Sequence record: NZ_LC532224.1
From: a plasmid
Strand: one strand, 5' to 3'
DNA length: 64,000 bases
Of the stretch, positions 1 through 36,736 are shown piece after piece. The notes beneath the pieces were generated by a model that searched no databases, was not told the DNA's origin, and saw nothing but the letters and a program-made list of their open reading frames with translations. The translations under genes were made by a program, and so were the position numbers. The number at the start of each line of letters is the position of its first letter. The first letter of the stretch is position 1.

Positions 1-268
1 CGTTTAATGACCAGCACAGTCGTGATGGCAAGGTCAGAATAGCGCTGAGGTCTGCCTCGTGAAGAAGGTGTTGCTGACTCATACCAGGCCTGAATAGCTT
101 CATCATCCAGCCAGAAAGTTATGGAGCCACGGTTGATGAGGGCTTTATTGTAGGTGGGCCAGTTGGTGATTTTGAACTTTTGCTTTGCCACGGAACGGTC
201 TGCGTTGTCGGGAAGATGCGTGATCTGATCCTTCAACTCAGCAAAAGTTCGATTTATTCAACAAAGCC
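1..268 (-). mobile_element. Partial IS903-like element (IS5 family, IS903 group). Only the transposase N-terminus (GTG start at 191) and the terminal IR GGCTTTGTTGAATAAATCGAAC lie in the window.
   Basis: Minus-strand translation gives MAKQKFKITNWPTYNKALINRGSITFWLDDEAIQAWYESATPSSRGRPQRYSDLAITTVLVIKR. The IS903 terminal inverted repeat ends at 268. Confidence 0.8.
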
Positions 269-689
269 GAGAAAAGACACAAAACGCACCATGCGCAAAA
301 AACTGCAAGTCCAGATGCAATAATCTCGCGTAAAAACATATTAAACGTTTCCGATAATGAATAAGTAATTACCATATCCTCTCCGTAAGTCTACATATAA
401 TTCAGACGTGACAAATAATTAAAGGCATTGCTATTCTATCATTATGCATTGCGTTTAAAATCATTTCTAATTCAGCAGAGTAGCGATACAGGCATTTCGC
501 TATCCTAAAATCTGGTAGCTTTCCATTTCCTTGCTGAGATAAATCAAAATAATTCTATTTATTGCCTATTCGGATGCTGCAAAACCTTATAAATCCGGAT
601 GTATATCACTTAACAGTGAACCATTCGGTGACTTGCTCTCCGTGAGGTCCACCGGGTTTATCCAGTAGGGAACATTCTGCTTTTACCGT

Positions 690-6229: not shown

Positions 6230-6825
6230 CGCTGCGGCCCCCCTCACAAAAAGGCGCTTTCCGCGACAAATCTGGTACGACCGGACAACGTTGAGTCAAT
6301 TCTTGCTTCCCCGCAGAAGAATCCCTATGAAGTAAAGTAGAGGTAGGCATTACGCCCACCAGCAAACCTGATAACTGTTCTTTGCGTAACATCCTCAAAC
6401 TTCTGGTGCCTTCGTAGACTGCGATGCGAATGCCCATGAGCTGAATTCACCGTATCATTTGACCGGATGCAGCGAGAACAGAAATGACAATGTTTGAACG
6501 ATTTGCCAGACGGCCATAAAACTCTACTGGGTACAGAATAAGGACTGACCGCAATGGCTACGTTCTATGAGCTACCGACCAGTGAGAAGTCCATTGTTTC
6601 CGGTACGTGCCCGGACGAGCACCGGTGAAATTTTTCCCGACTGGATTACGCTAAGGCTTTTGAACGGTTTGCGTGAAGTGGGACTCTTTGGGTCTGGTTC
6701 TTGATTTATACAAAAGGCTATATGCCACAAGACGGGAGGAAAAAAGGGTTTCCCCGACTGGAGAAACCCTTTCAAAAGGTGCCGATGGCATACTAATCCA
6801 CACCCCGAAAAGAGGGGGTTGCCCC

Positions 6826-8164
6826 CATAAGCGCTAACTTAAGGGTTGTGGTATTACGCCTGATATGATTTAACGTGCCGATGAATTACTCTCACGATAA
6901 CTGGTCAGCAATTCTGGCCCATATTGGTAAGCCCGAAGAACTGGATACTTCGGCACGTAATGCCGGGGCTCTAACCCGCCGCCGCGAAATTCGTGATGCT
7001 GCAACTCTGCTACGTCTGGGGCTGGCTTACGGCCCCGGGGGGATGTCATTACGTGAAGTCACTGCATGGGCTCAGCTCCATGACGTTGCAACATTATCTG
7101 ACGTGGCTCTCCTGAAGCGGCTGCGGAATGCCGCCGACTGGTTTGGCATACTTGCCGCACAAACACTTGCTGTACGCGCCGCAGTTACGGGTTGTACAAG
7201 CGGAAAGAGATTGCGTCTTGTCGATGGAACAGCAATCAGTGCGCCCGGGGGCGGCAGCGCTGAATGGCGACTACATATGGGATATGATCCTCATACCTGT
7301 CAGTTCACTGATTTTGAGCTAACCGACAGCAGAGACGCTGAACGGCTGGACCGATTTGCGCAAACGGCAGACGAGATACGCATTGCTGACCGGGGATTCG
7401 GTTCGCGTCCCGAATGTATCCGCTCACTTGCTTTTGGAGAAGCTGATTATATCGTCCGGGTTCACTGGCGAGGATTGCGCTGGTTAACTGCAGAAGGAAT
7501 GCGCTTTGACATGATGGGTTTTCTGCGCGGGCTGGATTGCGGTAAGAACGGTGAAACCACTGTAATGATAGGCAATTCAGGTAATAAAAAAGCCGGAGCT
7601 CCCTTTCCGGCACGTCTCATTGCCGTATCACTTCCTCCCGAAAAAGCATTAATCAGTAAAACCCGACTGCTCAGCGAGAATCGTCGAAAAGGACGAGTAG
7701 TTCAGGCGGAAACGCTGGAAGCAGCGGGCCATGTGCTATTGCTAACATCATTACCGGAAGATGAATATTCAGCAGAGCAAGTGGCTGATTGTTACCGTCT
7801 GCGATGGCAAATTGAACTGGCTTTTAAGCGGCTCAAAAGTTTGCTGCACCTGGATGCTTTGCGTGCAAAGGAACCTGAACTCGCGAAAGCGTGGATATTT
7901 GCTAATCTACTCGCCGCATTTTTAATTGACGACATAATCCAGCCATCGCTGGATTTCCCCCCCAGAAGTGCCGGATCCGAAAAGAAGAACTAACTCGTTG
8001 TGGAGAATAACAAAAATGGTCATCTGGAGCTTACAGGTGGCCATTCGTGGGACAGTATCCCTGACAGCCTACAAAACGCAATTGAAGAACGCGAGGCATC
8101 GTCTTAACGAGGCACCGAGGCGTCGCATTCTTCAGATGGTTCAACCCTTAAGTTAGCGCTTATG
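6826..8164 (+). mobile_element. IS186 (IS4 family), a complete copy with 23-bp terminal inverted repeats (CATAAGCGCTAACTTAAGGGTTG) and a 10-bp GGGTTGCCCC target duplication.
   Basis: Inverted repeats sit at 6826-6848 and 8142-8164. The flanking repeats are 6816-6825 and 8165-8174. The reconstructed empty site is a G/C-rich perfect palindrome, aaagaggggg-ttg-cccccctcttt. Confidence 0.9.
6875..7993 (+). CDS. IS186 transposase (DDE, IS4 family).
   Basis: 372-aa ORF (M)NYSHDNWSAILAHIGKPEELDTSARNAG...YRLRWQIELAFKRLKS, recognised as IS186 Tnp. Confidence 0.9.
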   Translation: MPMNYSHDNWSAILAHIGKPEELDTSARNAGALTRRREIRDAATLLRLGLAYGPGGMSLREVTAWAQLHDVATLSDVALLKRLRNAADWFGILAAQTLAVRAAVTGCTSGKRLRLVDGTAISAPGGGSAEWRLHMGYDPHTCQFTDFELTDSRDAERLDRFAQTADEIRIADRGFGSRPECIRSLAFGEADYIVRVHWRGLRWLTAEGMRFDMMGFLRGLDCGKNGETTVMIGNSGNKKAGAPFPARLIAVSLPPEKALISKTRLLSENRRKGRVVQAETLEAAGHVLLLTSLPEDEYSAEQVADCYRLRWQIELAFKRLKSLLHLDALRAKEPELAKAWIFANLLAAFLIDDIIQPSLDFPPRSAGSEKKN

Positions 8165-8186
8165 GGGTTGCCCCCCTCTTTGTCAG

Positions 8187-8345
8187 CTACTTACCGGATT
8201 CGTAGGCCAGGATAGCAGATACCTCCCTTGTTCCGTCTTTCATCCGCAACTCGCAAAGCGAGTTTCGTGTGAGCCAGGTGAATATCAACAGCGTTAAACA
8301 AACTATTAATATGCACAAAACAATGGGTTGGTTCGGCATTTTCAT
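8187..8345 (-). CDS. hok: Hok/Gef-family type I toxin (52 aa).
   Basis: [52 protein letters not shown] is near-identical in pattern to Hok ([52 protein letters not shown]). AAGGAG RBS present. The listed 99-aa ORF is an in-frame upstream extension. Confidence 0.85.
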
Positions 8346-8560
8346 GGCCTTCTTCTCCTTGCATTTAAGCAGGCAAGAGGCTACTCTGAATGTGACTAGC
8401 ATACAGGGGCCTCGGGTTAATTGAAAAATTACTCGGGGCTTTCTGCTTTTACCACAGTCAAACAGTGTTACCGCTGGCTGGGGCAAAAGCCTCCAGCACC
8501 AGCGTTATTATACCACCCTGCCCTGATCAGCCAAACACCCCGCCTACATAAATTACTGAT
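8346..8560 (-). promoter_or_regulatory. sok: hok mRNA leader region. By analogy with R1 hok/sok, it should hold the mok overlap, tac/ucb elements and the antisense Sok RNA on the opposite strand.
   Basis: Inferred from the architecture of hok/sok loci. No sok promoter or terminator was verified in the sequence. Confidence 0.3.
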
Positions 8561-8699: not shown

Positions 8700-9305
8700 T
8701 CAGGAGGCACTGCTTCCGTTGATTAGGGAAATCTTATGTGCCTGAATACGGCTGTATTCGAGATGGGATGCAATATTACAGATGCGCTCCAGTCGATCAT
8801 GCAGCCTCGTGTAGGTCAGTCGATGAATACCGGACATTTCATCAAGTAGCCAGCGCTTGATGTAAGGGTTACAGGAAAGCCGGGCAAGATCGTCGTCATC
8901 CACTTCGTCAAAGAACCAGTACTGCTCCATCGGGACTACCTGAAATATCCACGGCCGGGGATAGTCCCCTGTGACAACCAAAAACCATGCAAGAAAGCAT
9001 AGACACAGCTCAACGACCATAAGCATCGAAAATTGCGAATAACTTAGACCGGGCACATAGGGTGAACTATCCGCAACATACCCCCTGAGCAATTCCGCCA
9101 CAAGGTAGCCCAATAGCGTCAAGGCCAGCATCAGGGTCAGGATTAATCCCCCATTAAACGCTACCGAAGCCTTTTGAACCCGATCAGGTGCTGTCCGGCT
9201 GCGATAGTTGGTCACTACTCTTTCTACAAGTGCCCTTATGGCAGCCTGTTCTTTACTGACATCAGCTCCGGAAAAACCGGACGGGCTTTTATTTAATTCA
9301 GTCAT
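8700..9305 (-). CDS. Hypothetical membrane protein (201 aa, 2-3 TM helices).
   Basis: ORF with hydrophobic segments LILTLMLALTLLGYLVAELL and LMVVELCLCFLAWFLVV. Confidence 0.5.
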   Translation of the reverse strand: MTELNKSPSGFSGADVSKEQAAIRALVERVVTNYRSRTAPDRVQKASVAFNGGLILTLMLALTLLGYLVAELLRGYVADSSPYVPGLSYSQFSMLMVVELCLCFLAWFLVVTGDYPRPWIFQVVPMEQYWFFDEVDDDDLARLSCNPYIKRWLLDEMSGIHRLTYTRLHDRLERICNIASHLEYSRIQAHKISLINGSSAS

Positions 9306-28810: not shown

Positions 28811-28872
28811 AAAAGGGGCCGCAGCCCCTGATAATAATTATCAAACCCAGGCTGAGCCTGGCTTCCACTTCA

Positions 28873-34476: not shown

Positions 34477-36736
34477 GTAGAGTAAGAGGCAGGGCGTAGT
34501 CGGACTATTTCCCTGCCTCTCCTCCCCGAACCGGACGTGCACCTTTCAGCGCATCCGGCTCTCCATTTAAATGCTGGCGAACGCCATTGCCACTTCTGTA
34601 AAGCGCGATGTATACGTGTTTCTGGTCTCCGTCCTCAGATAGGGATTACCTTCGGGTAGCCGCCAGCGGAACAGCTTCTTGCCTTGCCCCACCAACCGGT
34701 ACAGTATTTCGCCGCTGAGCTTGCCGTGATTGGTTTTACCAAATAAAACCCACGTTTTGCTCTGACCCGGTTTCGGTGATTTACACCACCACCTCATCAG
34801 GGAAGCGATACCTGTACGGTATTTGCGGGCCAGCCAGTGAGCCAGCTTCCAGAACACGACACGGTCGATATAACTGAAGACTTTGGCCTTAAAATCAACG
34901 AACTGATAGAACATGGCCCAGCCTTTCAGTTTTCGGTTGAGTTGTTCAGCCATATCGACTTTGCTTTCACTGTAGTTGCCTGATAACAGTGCTGTCAGCG
35001 ATGCGGCGAAGTTTCTGGCTTTCTCCTGCGGGATCGTTGAGACCACTCGCATCTCGCCATAACGACTGCGTTTGCGAATGATCCTGTGCCCCAGAAAGAT
35101 AAAGCCGTCATTAACATGGGTGATTTTAGTCTTATCCATGTTCAGCCTGAGTTTCAGACTGCCTTCGAGCACACCCCGACACTCCTCCCTGATGGCTTCC
35201 GCCTGTGCTTTGGTGCCTTTGACGATGAGGACAAAATCATCGGCATAGCGGCAGTACGCCACCGCGGGTTTCCACTGCCAGTTTTCTCTGACCGCCGTAC
35301 TTCGGCCCCGTTGGATACTGTTATTCCAGTACCACCGATCTTTTCTGGCTTTCCCGCTCAGGTAGCGCTCATGCAGGTATTGATCGAACTCATTCAGCAT
35401 GATGTTCGATAATAGCGGCGATATAACACCGCCCTGTGGTACACCTTCACTGGCCGCCCGAAAGAGACCGACATCGATATGTCCCGCCTTGATGGTTTTC
35501 CACAGCAGAGTCATGAAACGTGCGTCACTGATCCTGCGGCGTACAGCCTTCATCAGCAGTCGATGATGTACGGTGTCGAAGTAACTGGACAGGTCGCCTT
35601 CAATCACCCAGCGTCCCCGGGTTTCACCACAGTCTGTGAGCTGTAATTTCACCGTGCGGATCGCGTGGTGGACACTGCGCTCAGGCCGGAAGCCATATGA
35701 GAGCGTATGAAAATCACTCTCCCATATCGGCTCCATCGCCATCAGCATGGCCCGCTGAACAATACGATCCCGCAACGCGGGGATACCCAGTGGTCGCAGT
35801 TTGCCGTTGCTTTTAGGGATGTAAACCCGTCTGGCGGGCAAGGGCTGGTAGTGGCCTGAGAGTAATTCATCCCTGAGGATTTGCAGCTCAACAGCCAGTC
35901 TGGCCTGTAGCATTGTTTTGTTCACGCCATCAACGCCGGGGGTATGGGCCCCCTTTGATGAAAGCGTGATCCGCGCCGCTTCAGCCAGCCATTCTGGTTG
36001 TGTTATCAGACGCAGCAGCCGTTGAATCCGTAGGGACGGATCGGTGGCTGCCCATGTGGCAAGCTTGCGTTGCATTTCGCTGATTATCAAAGGTCTTCAC
36101 CTCGTTAGGTCAGTTAATTCACGTCGCAAACACATTCAAACTGCTTCCCTTCGCCATGTAATGGGCTTTCCCCATCGCGGACTACTACGGAAGCTCCGCC
36201 AGCCAGCGCGTCATCGGAGCCATGCCCCCTTAACATCCGTCGCTGACCTTCCCCGGTTTACCTGCCTGGACTCAGGCATACTGAGGAGGCTGCCCGTCGC
36301 ACTCTTTATCCTTGCTTGCCGCAAGTTGGCAGAAGTCAGCATCGCAAGCGTGATAGACGCTGCTGCCCCGGTGTTTCGCATACATGTCAAAACACCTTCG
36401 ACCGGCAGTGCTTACGTATCACTGCCAGTTCCTCCTGCACGGCCTGTCAGATCACGTAGGCCGTGGTGACGTTTTCAACCCACAGAGGCGGATTAACGGG
36501 TTCATGTTCTTCAGCCTTTCAGTACTTAACCTTGAGGATCATCTCGGCTTAGTGATCTCGCCTCAATCCCCGTTGTCAGCGGGTTACATCACCCTGCGGG
36601 CATGCCGCAGGTCACTGCCGCTCAGGTTCTCCACCGTCACACCCGGTGGGATTGTTGGGTTTCTCATCGTGAGTTACCGGTTCAATATTCCAGACAGACT
36701 CGCGGTTCATTTAAGCATCCATGCCCGCCCTGAACT
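34477..36736 (-). mobile_element. Group II intron (2260 nt) with an intron-encoded reverse transcriptase/maturase.
   Basis: The 5' end GUGUGC… (GUGYG) lies directly after orfB codon ITY. Domain V GAGCCGGATGCGCTGAAAGGTGCACGTCCGGTTC sits at 34528-34561. The domain VI / 3' end is …CTCTTACTCTAC. The IEP ORF is in the domain IV position. Confidence 0.85.
34567..36090 (-). CDS. Group II intron reverse transcriptase/maturase (IEP).
   Basis: 507 aa with the RT motifs (…LGIPALRDRIVQRAM…, FYADDFVLIVKG) and the maturase X domain. Confidence 0.9.
   Translation of the reverse strand: MIISEMQRKLATWAATDPSLRIQRLLRLITQPEWLAEAARITLSSKGAHTPGVDGVNKTMLQARLAVELQILRDELLSGHYQPLPARRVYIPKSNGKLRPLGIPALRDRIVQRAMLMAMEPIWESDFHTLSYGFRPERSVHHAIRTVKLQLTDCGETRGRWVIEGDLSSYFDTVHHRLLMKAVRRRISDARFMTLLWKTIKAGHIDVGLFRAASEGVPQGGVISPLLSNIMLNEFDQYLHERYLSGKARKDRWYWNNSIQRGRSTAVRENWQWKPAVAYCRYADDFVLIVKGTKAQAEAIREECRGVLEGSLKLRLNMDKTKITHVNDGFIFLGHRIIRKRSRYGEMRVVSTIPQEKARNFAASLTALLSGNYSESKVDMAEQLNRKLKGWAMFYQFVDFKAKVFSYIDRVVFWKLAHWLARKYRTGIASLMRWWCKSPKPGQSKTWVLFGKTNHGKLSGEILYRLVGQGKKLFRWRLPEGNPYLRTETRNTYTSRFTEVAMAFASI

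Follow-up and report, generated by a model that had tools for sequence, protein, structure and literature searches.

IS186 in the 3' stem-loop of the hok mRNA of an IncHI2 plasmid, a recurrent insertion that most likely disables the addiction module

In the classical model of the hok/sok system, pairing between the tac element at the 5' end of the hok mRNA and the fbi element near its 3' end holds the full-length transcript in a closed, stable and untranslatable conformation; slow trimming of the 3' end then yields an open mRNA that is either bound by the antisense RNA Sok and cleaved by RNase III or, once Sok has decayed, translated (PMC9841398). In plasmid R1 a stem-loop behind the hok stop codon is of particular importance: of 22 loss-of-function substitutions in the 3' untranslated region, 19 disrupt one of its C-G pairs (Le Rhun et al. 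2022, PMC9841398), and the truncated mRNA is no longer formed in the G345A and C358A mutants, probably owing to 3'-5' exonucleases (PMC9841398). Here we describe a hok/sok-type locus in which this part of the transcript is interrupted by the insertion sequence (IS) IS186. The locus lies in a 64,000-nucleotide stretch of plasmid DNA (the window; sequence record NZ_LC532224.1), which represents an IncHI2 plasmid backbone and, over the 2.4 kb compared, is 99.9% identical to the Escherichia coli plasmid pMRGN207.

Three copies of IS186 in comparable positions have already been documented, two of them in the chromosome of E. coli K-12 MG1655, where the stop codon of hokC (gef) is 19 bp away from IS186A and that of hokE 18 bp away from IS186B. 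The interrupted sites are GGCGGGG-AGTGAT-CCCCGCC in hokC and GCGGGG-AGTAAT-CCCCGC in hokE; reading across the junctions shows that the element is oriented with respect to the toxin gene as in the window in the former case and oppositely in the latter. A passage in the literature that cites Pedersen & Gerdes (1999) counts hokA, hokC and hokE as inactivated by insertion elements (PMC12214031). The gef mRNA of K-12 has its 3' end within the element, some 200 bp beyond the stop codon (PMC3562002), and in a survey of mobile-element insertions, hotspots of insertion in E. coli and Klebsiella pneumoniae were found to have hok/sok homologues nearby (bioRxiv 10.1101/527788). The third copy is that of the IncHI2 prototype R478 (NC_005211, Serratia marcescens), which shares with the window the hok allele, the IS186 insertion, its orientation and its target duplication, but carries in addition IS150 in the Sok/leader region, whereas the window has IS186 only; the two IS186 copies differ at 2 positions. 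In R478 the element has been listed as "IS186B between orf321 and ldrB", with no remark on the hok mRNA (PMC5955447).

When the junctions of the window, hokC and hokE are set side by side, IS186 is seen in each of them within the first 3' hairpin, between the stop codon and fbi, and flanked by 10-bp duplications. The presence of IS186 in the first 3' stem-loop of hok is a known pattern, of which the window is another case; the preliminary description of this DNA missed both the K-12 precedent and the published R478 copy. Yet the present locus differs from those of K-12 in several respects. The K-12 genes are chromosomal, whereas a conjugative IncHI2 resistance plasmid carries the window locus, for which a role in plasmid maintenance would be expected; its Hok protein falls in the R1-like branch and not with HokC or HokE; and the plasmid site is occupied in both orientations and with two duplication lengths over hundreds of records. 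We did not find the scale and recurrence of IS186 at the IncHI2 hok site described in the searchable literature, and this aspect may be new for IncHI2 resistance plasmids.

The insertion and the restored hok mRNA

The 52-residue product of the hok open reading frame (ORF) matches the Pfam family HOK_GEF (PF01848) with an E-value of 8.8e-19 (67 bits, cutoff 22) and has the same length as the Hok protein of plasmid R100, while the leader aligns to the full length (positions 1-157) of the Rfam sok model RF01794 with 84.4 bits (gathering score 59, E-value 1.4e-18). Identification of the ORF as a Hok/Gef homologue in a hok/sok-type locus, made initially from the letters of the DNA, is borne out by these matches. 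The same applies to the reported placement of IS186 within the GC palindrome directly after hok: the right end of the element begins 22 nt past the hok stop codon, and the 10-bp target duplication GGGTTGCCCC is found on either side, at 6816-6825 and 8165-8174. This length is obtained by counting from CATAAG..CTTATG as the ends of the element, and the duplication is reduced to a 6-bp core if the ends are taken to be CCCATAAG..CTTATGGG. IS186 is bounded by perfect 23-bp inverted repeats (CATAAGCGCTAACTTAAGGGTTG) and shows 0 differences from K-12 IS186A. Its transposase ORF (6881-7993, plus strand; GTG-extended from 6875) is convergent with hok and encodes a DDE-type enzyme (PF01609, E-value 1.6e-26); PGAP labels the same element an IS421-family transposase. 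The hexamer GGGTTG of the duplicated target (8165-8170) is also that of the inner end of the inverted repeat (6843-6848 / 8142-8147), so that the flanking CAACCC could pair with the GGGUUG of the inverted repeat in a chimeric transcript; the match is probably a coincidence.

Removal of IS186 together with one copy of the duplication yields a 1052-bp string that is present, without a single change, in the IS-free IncHI2A plasmid pCRENT-193_1, and the empty site has thus been recovered from an IS-free relative, as the preliminary description had proposed. The restored palindrome, AAAGAGGGGG-TTGC-CCCCCTCTTT, has 10-bp arms and starts 6 nt past the hok stop codon; in the hok-sense RNA the stop codon is followed by CUGAC-AAAGAGGGGGG-CAA-CCCCCUCUUU-UCGGGG. 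The intact hairpin has a GC-rich stem of 10 bp with a predicted energy of -18.0 kcal/mol (-22.8 kcal/mol with flanks), whereas the residual fold after insertion is a GGGG/CCCC stem of 4 bp at -8.2 kcal/mol, without a U run. The claim of a perfect G/C palindrome therefore needs qualification: a palindrome does exist in the restored site, but in the window it is split and this allele has one extra C, the perfect 11-bp palindrome with a 3-nt loop being confined to a sister allele with six G.

To establish what this hairpin represents, the locus was compared with that of R100, numbered from +1 (GGCGCUUGAGGC), whose hok coding sequence we take to be identical to that of R1. The R100 stop codon ends at +332, the GC hairpin that includes G345 and C358 occupies +339..+359 and fbi ends at +398; in the minimum-free-energy fold of the R100 mRNA, nucleotides 1-7 are paired with 392-398. 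The IS-free form of the window mRNA has the same arrangement, with the end of the stop codon at about +315, the hairpin at about +321..344 and fbi at about +364..375, followed by a second hairpin and a U run, and in its minimum-free-energy fold fbi is paired with nucleotides 2-9 at the 5' end, that is, with tac. This fbi (Table 1) is the best tac partner anywhere downstream of hok (-19.2 kcal/mol). In 10 further hok loci (nine plasmid loci and K-12 hokC) a common order is observed: the stop codon is followed within 3-7 nt by a GC hairpin, and then come the best tac partner (stop+48..67), UUU and a terminator-like hairpin. Our search for the tac motif failed in K-12 hokE, and this gene was used for the junction comparison alone. 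Homology between two IncHI2 backbone lineages ends at about 6739, directly past the second hairpin, which therefore marks the end of the hok module.

The tac element differs between clades, GGCGCUU in the R1 type and GGUGCUG in the IncHI type, and fbi changes to compensate; two of the tac-fbi pairs change on both sides, pair 3 being C-G or U-A and pair 7 U-A, G-C or G-U. Pairing is found in 84.7% of the tac-fbi cells, compared with 32-42% in controls with the partner shifted by 1-3 columns, a count that comes from six distinct sequences with fbi segments picked by best duplex and is supportive rather than decisive. The conserved position of fbi is independent of the choice of the best duplex.

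The locus thus resembles that of R1/R100 in its 52-amino-acid Hok, RF01794 leader, 5' tac, GC stem-loop after the stop codon, fbi some 30 nt further on and terminator hairpin. It is unlike R1 in that its stem is an IS186 target, whereas the R1 stem (GGGC...GCCC) is not; in that its Shine-Dalgarno-proximal AUG is in frame with hok, whereas the R1 mok is separate and in the +1 frame; and in that its 3' module is cut off by IS186. Judged by position and sequence, the hairpin that received the insertion corresponds to the stem that closes the 3' end of the processed (truncated) active hok mRNA and not, as was supposed at the outset, to the hok terminator or extreme 3' end, since in the alignment it falls on +339..+359 of R1/R100, and fbi and the terminator lie beyond it. 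The preliminary description was nevertheless right to place the hairpin within the hok transcript: neither of the two findings that it named as a refutation, termination upstream of the insertion point in IS-free homologues or a hairpin outside the transcript, applies, because the conserved fbi and a terminator hairpin are located downstream of that point.

Target specificity and recurrence in IncHI2 plasmids

The published target of IS186 is GGGG(N6/N7)CCCC, used in either orientation and occurring just 54 times in the genome of E. coli (Lee et al. 2016, PMC5009759). The restored hok hairpin, GGGG-GTTGCC-CCCC, is a perfect N6 target, in agreement with the preliminary description, and IS186 landed here because of this match. 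Only two other perfect targets are found in the window, GGGGCCGCAGCCCC at 28815-28828 (N6) and GGGGGTATGGGCCCC at 35938-35953 (N7), both of them unoccupied; several other plasmid hok hairpins contain GGGG...CCCC.

We searched PLSDB for the occupied and empty forms of the site, all counts being rough owing to the redundancy of the database and the different requirements of each query. The junction of the window (orientation A) occurs in 124 records, including R478. The junction expected for an inverted IS (orientation B, searched with a synthetic query) is present in 120 further records and was confirmed in three loci, in which the transposase is on the hok strand. The empty site was detected in 802 records, as against approximately 244 in which it is occupied. 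Both orientations are found on both backbone alleles, those with five and those with six G, and the duplications are of 10 or 11 bp, from which it follows that the site has been struck repeatedly and independently. A single ancestral insertion of IS186 in IncHI2 was considered and rejected in view of the two orientations at the site. The event is an encounter of IS186 target specificity with a conserved structural element of hok mRNAs that has recurred many times, a recurrent and predictable lesion in one gene family that affects chromosomes and plasmids alike. Our understanding of the mechanisms of hok/sok or of IS186 is left unchanged.

A second element, IS150, interrupts the same hok locus in many IncHI2 plasmids, including R478; flanked by a GGT duplication (window-equivalent 8415-8417), it is located in the Sok stem, shortly before the mok Shine-Dalgarno sequence. 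In K-12, hokA likewise carries IS150, in mokA/sokA. The IS150 junction was found in about 1245 PLSDB records, a number that exceeds the sum of the IS186-empty and IS186-occupied records, the queries being different. IS150 and IS186 occur together in 68 records; the window is without IS150. For annotation, it follows that "hok/sok present" on an IncHI2 resistance plasmid is not equivalent to a working addiction system, as, by these rough counts, about one quarter of these loci have IS186 in the tail of the mRNA and most have IS150 in the Sok/leader region.

Predicted effect on the hok transcript and alternative explanations

The uninterrupted hok mRNA extends from about 8500 through hok, the stem-loop and fbi to the terminator hairpin. 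The insertion breaks the stem-loop, leaving 4 of its 10 bp, and displaces fbi and the terminator by 1349 bp, to the far side of an IS that hok transcripts enter antisense to its transposase gene. Transcripts initiated at the intact hok promoter would then enter IS186 and end there. Such RNAs would not acquire the closed, stable and inert conformation that depends on tac-fbi pairing, nor would they be trimmed back to the 3' stem-loop that guards the active form, and the long-lived pool of hok mRNA needed for post-segregational killing would be lost while Sok would still be made. Given the loss of this reservoir with continued synthesis of Sok, we consider that, by the R1 model and the K-12 precedents, the IncHI2 hok/sok locus with IS186 in its mRNA tail is most likely a disabled addiction module, incapable of post-segregational killing, as has been reported for K-12 hokC and hokE.

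As to where the chimeric transcripts might end, a simple terminator scan returned only one strong minus-strand terminator inside IS186 (7611..7592). A weaker hairpin followed by a U run, UUUUUGUUAUU, located approximately 140-180 nt past the stop codon (~8046..8007), is a candidate 3' end that fits the distance of about 200 bp published for gef. Whole-transcript minimum-free-energy folds of the IS-bearing RNAs proved uninformative, as the 5' end pairs with whatever sits at the arbitrarily chosen 3' end. Several 16-mers inside IS186 were evaluated as a substitute fbi and rejected as designed elements, since they are dispersed, pair no better than chance would predict and lie a long way from the stop codon.

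Several considerations weigh against inactivation. The loss of function at this locus would be an extrapolation from the K-12 loci and from mutagenesis of R1. No damage is seen in the hok ORF, in its promoter or in the Sok region, and a toxic product may still be made; sites internal to IS186 could pair with tac with energies of -17.5 to -17.9 kcal/mol, compared with -19.2 kcal/mol for fbi, and could provide an accidental substitute fold. The K-12 gef gene with IS186 is still transcribed and is controlled by antisense RNA (PMC3562002). That the insertion has been retained in hundreds of plasmids fits neutrality equally well, and the covariation count that supports tac-fbi pairing has the modest weight indicated above.

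The undamaged state of the gene could also be read in the opposite sense, namely, that without fbi the hok mRNA would be born open, ready for translation and accessible to Sok, giving a toxin under constitutive Sok control that would kill or arrest the cell, with faster kinetics, whenever Sok falls upon plasmid loss or stress. IS-free alleles have an identical hok ORF, Shine-Dalgarno region, promoter and Sok region, it is the tac-fbi pairing that keeps the full-length R1 mRNA closed (PMC9841398), and gef, with the same IS186 arrangement, has retained transcription and antisense regulation. However, the insertion also destroys the protective 3' stem-loop, and in R1 single substitutions that weaken this stem abolish both the active mRNA and toxicity (PMC9841398). 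Moreover, an mRNA that binds Sok at once is degraded by RNase III, which leaves no stable reservoir after plasmid loss (PMC9841398), and the K-12 loci of the same arrangement are regarded as inactivated, at least in the passage cited above (PMC12214031). De-repression of this kind appears unlikely to us. It is very improbable that the insertion was without consequence, either because the first hairpin already terminates most transcripts or because the IncHI2 locus was non-functional beforehand. The hairpin does resemble an intrinsic terminator, with a GC stem of 10 bp followed by UCUUUUC, but that of R1 is equally terminator-like and the full-length R1 mRNA nevertheless reaches fbi; the insertion, furthermore, breaks the hairpin too, so that termination there would be lost. 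The in-frame fusion of the Shine-Dalgarno-proximal AUG to hok is a departure from the R1 design, and IS150 in the Sok/leader region of most IncHI2 plasmids suggests a dispensable locus; against this, the compensatory changes that keep tac and fbi complementary in the IncHI clade would be unexpected if transcripts stopped earlier. An assembly artefact or a chance resemblance has a negligible probability and is refuted by the perfect inverted repeats and duplication, by the exact reconstruction of the empty site and by the occurrence of the same junction in 124 independently sequenced plasmids, R478 among them.

If the locus is indeed disabled, a further step would be to view the GGGG(N6)CCCC stem-loop, which many hok mRNAs require at the 3' end of the processed form, as a built-in landing pad for IS186, its repeated capture being a selected off-switch, and not just an accident of mutation, that silences the toxin while Sok remains expressed. 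Of the IncHI2 sites counted in PLSDB, approximately one quarter hold IS186, which is found in both orientations and on two alleles. Should this conjecture, to which we attach a low probability, be correct, large IncHI2 plasmids would have shed a costly killer, and the retained Sok might shield their hosts from related hok plasmids.

Features of the locus and its surroundings

The features of the locus are collected in Table 1. Apart from the IS186 insertion, the hok locus shows no sign of decay: 536 bp around hok are 100% identical to IS-free plasmids, as are the hok ORF and the 350 bp upstream of it. The hok promoter is the sole promoter-like site that a consensus scan returned between 6600 and 8650 (8534..8507, minus strand), and it lies 6 nt upstream of the presumed +1 at G8500.

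Table 1. Coordinates of the hok/sok locus and of the inserted element (positions in the window)
Feature	Coordinates	Strand	Remarks
IS186 (IS4 family, IS421 isoform)	6826..8164	+	1339 bp; inverted repeats 6826-6848, 8142-8164
Terminator-like hairpin and U run, end of hok module	6740..6772	-	AAAGGGUUUCUCC-AGUC-GGGGAAACCCUUUUUU; stop+67..99 in restored site
fbi element, GCCAUCGGCACC	6778..6789	-	stop+50..61 in restored site; now 1349 bp further from hok
Distal stem-loop remnant (3' arm)	6809..6825	-	holds left duplication copy, 6816-6825
hok-proximal stem-loop remnant (5' arm, loop, four C)	8165..8181	-	holds right duplication copy, 8165-8174
hok toxin coding sequence, 52 amino acids (MKMPNQ...YESGK), intact	8187..8345	-	Pfam HOK_GEF, PF01848
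71-amino-acid ORF from AUG after mok Shine-Dalgarno, in frame with hok	8187..8402	-	AUG-to-AUG distance 57 nt, frame 0
hok mRNA leader with Sok target region and mok Shine-Dalgarno	8343..8501	-	Rfam RF01794
Putative sok gene	8359..8450	+	promoter TTGCAT-17-TACTCT (8359-8387); antisense RNA of ~56 nt (~8395-8450), hairpin and U run at end
tac element, 5' end of hok mRNA, GGUGCUGGAGGC	8489..8500	-	aligns to RF01794 positions 1-12 and to R100 GGCGCUUGAGGC
hok promoter	8507..8534	-	TTGGCT-16-TATAAT with extended -10 TG; consensus scan 10/12 matches

The putative sok promoter and RNA were placed by positional homology to Sok of R1/R100, and a simple promoter scan gave no call there. Behind the mok Shine-Dalgarno sequence, an AUG opens a 71-codon ORF that consists of Hok with an N-terminal extension of 19 residues. 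The distance from this AUG to that of hok is 57 nt (frame 0) both here and in the IncHI1A homologue, and 58 or 61 nt in R100 and four other plasmid loci, where it gives the usual overlapping mok in frame +1. No overlapping +1-frame mok was found behind the Shine-Dalgarno sequence of the window, the only ORF in the Mok frame being 8364..8191, which has no evident Shine-Dalgarno sequence of its own. These reading frames suggest that an N-extended Hok may be translated in the IncHI2/IncHI1A clade in place of mok-hok coupling. In the RefSeq/PGAP annotation of near-identical plasmids, hok is called with 39 amino acids from an internal start (8187-8306, minus strand), and mok appears as a partial DUF5431 pseudogene.

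Upstream of hok, the window and pCRENT-193_1, both without IS150, have an ORF of 201 codons (8700-9305) that is of unknown function and without a Pfam match, and in some IncHI2 plasmids (NZ_CP050163.1) relE/relB are directly upstream of hok instead. The loss of relE-orf612 in R478 has been ascribed to IS150 (PMC5955447), an explanation that does not account for the IS150-free plasmids, because those too lack relE-orf612. In pMRGN207, the annotation of the roughly 30 kb around hok includes a RelE/ParE toxin and tellurite-resistance genes, and other maintenance functions therefore exist. Elsewhere in the window, positions 34477-34563 (minus strand) match the Rfam group II catalytic intron model RF00029 with 64.9 bits, against a gathering score of 40.

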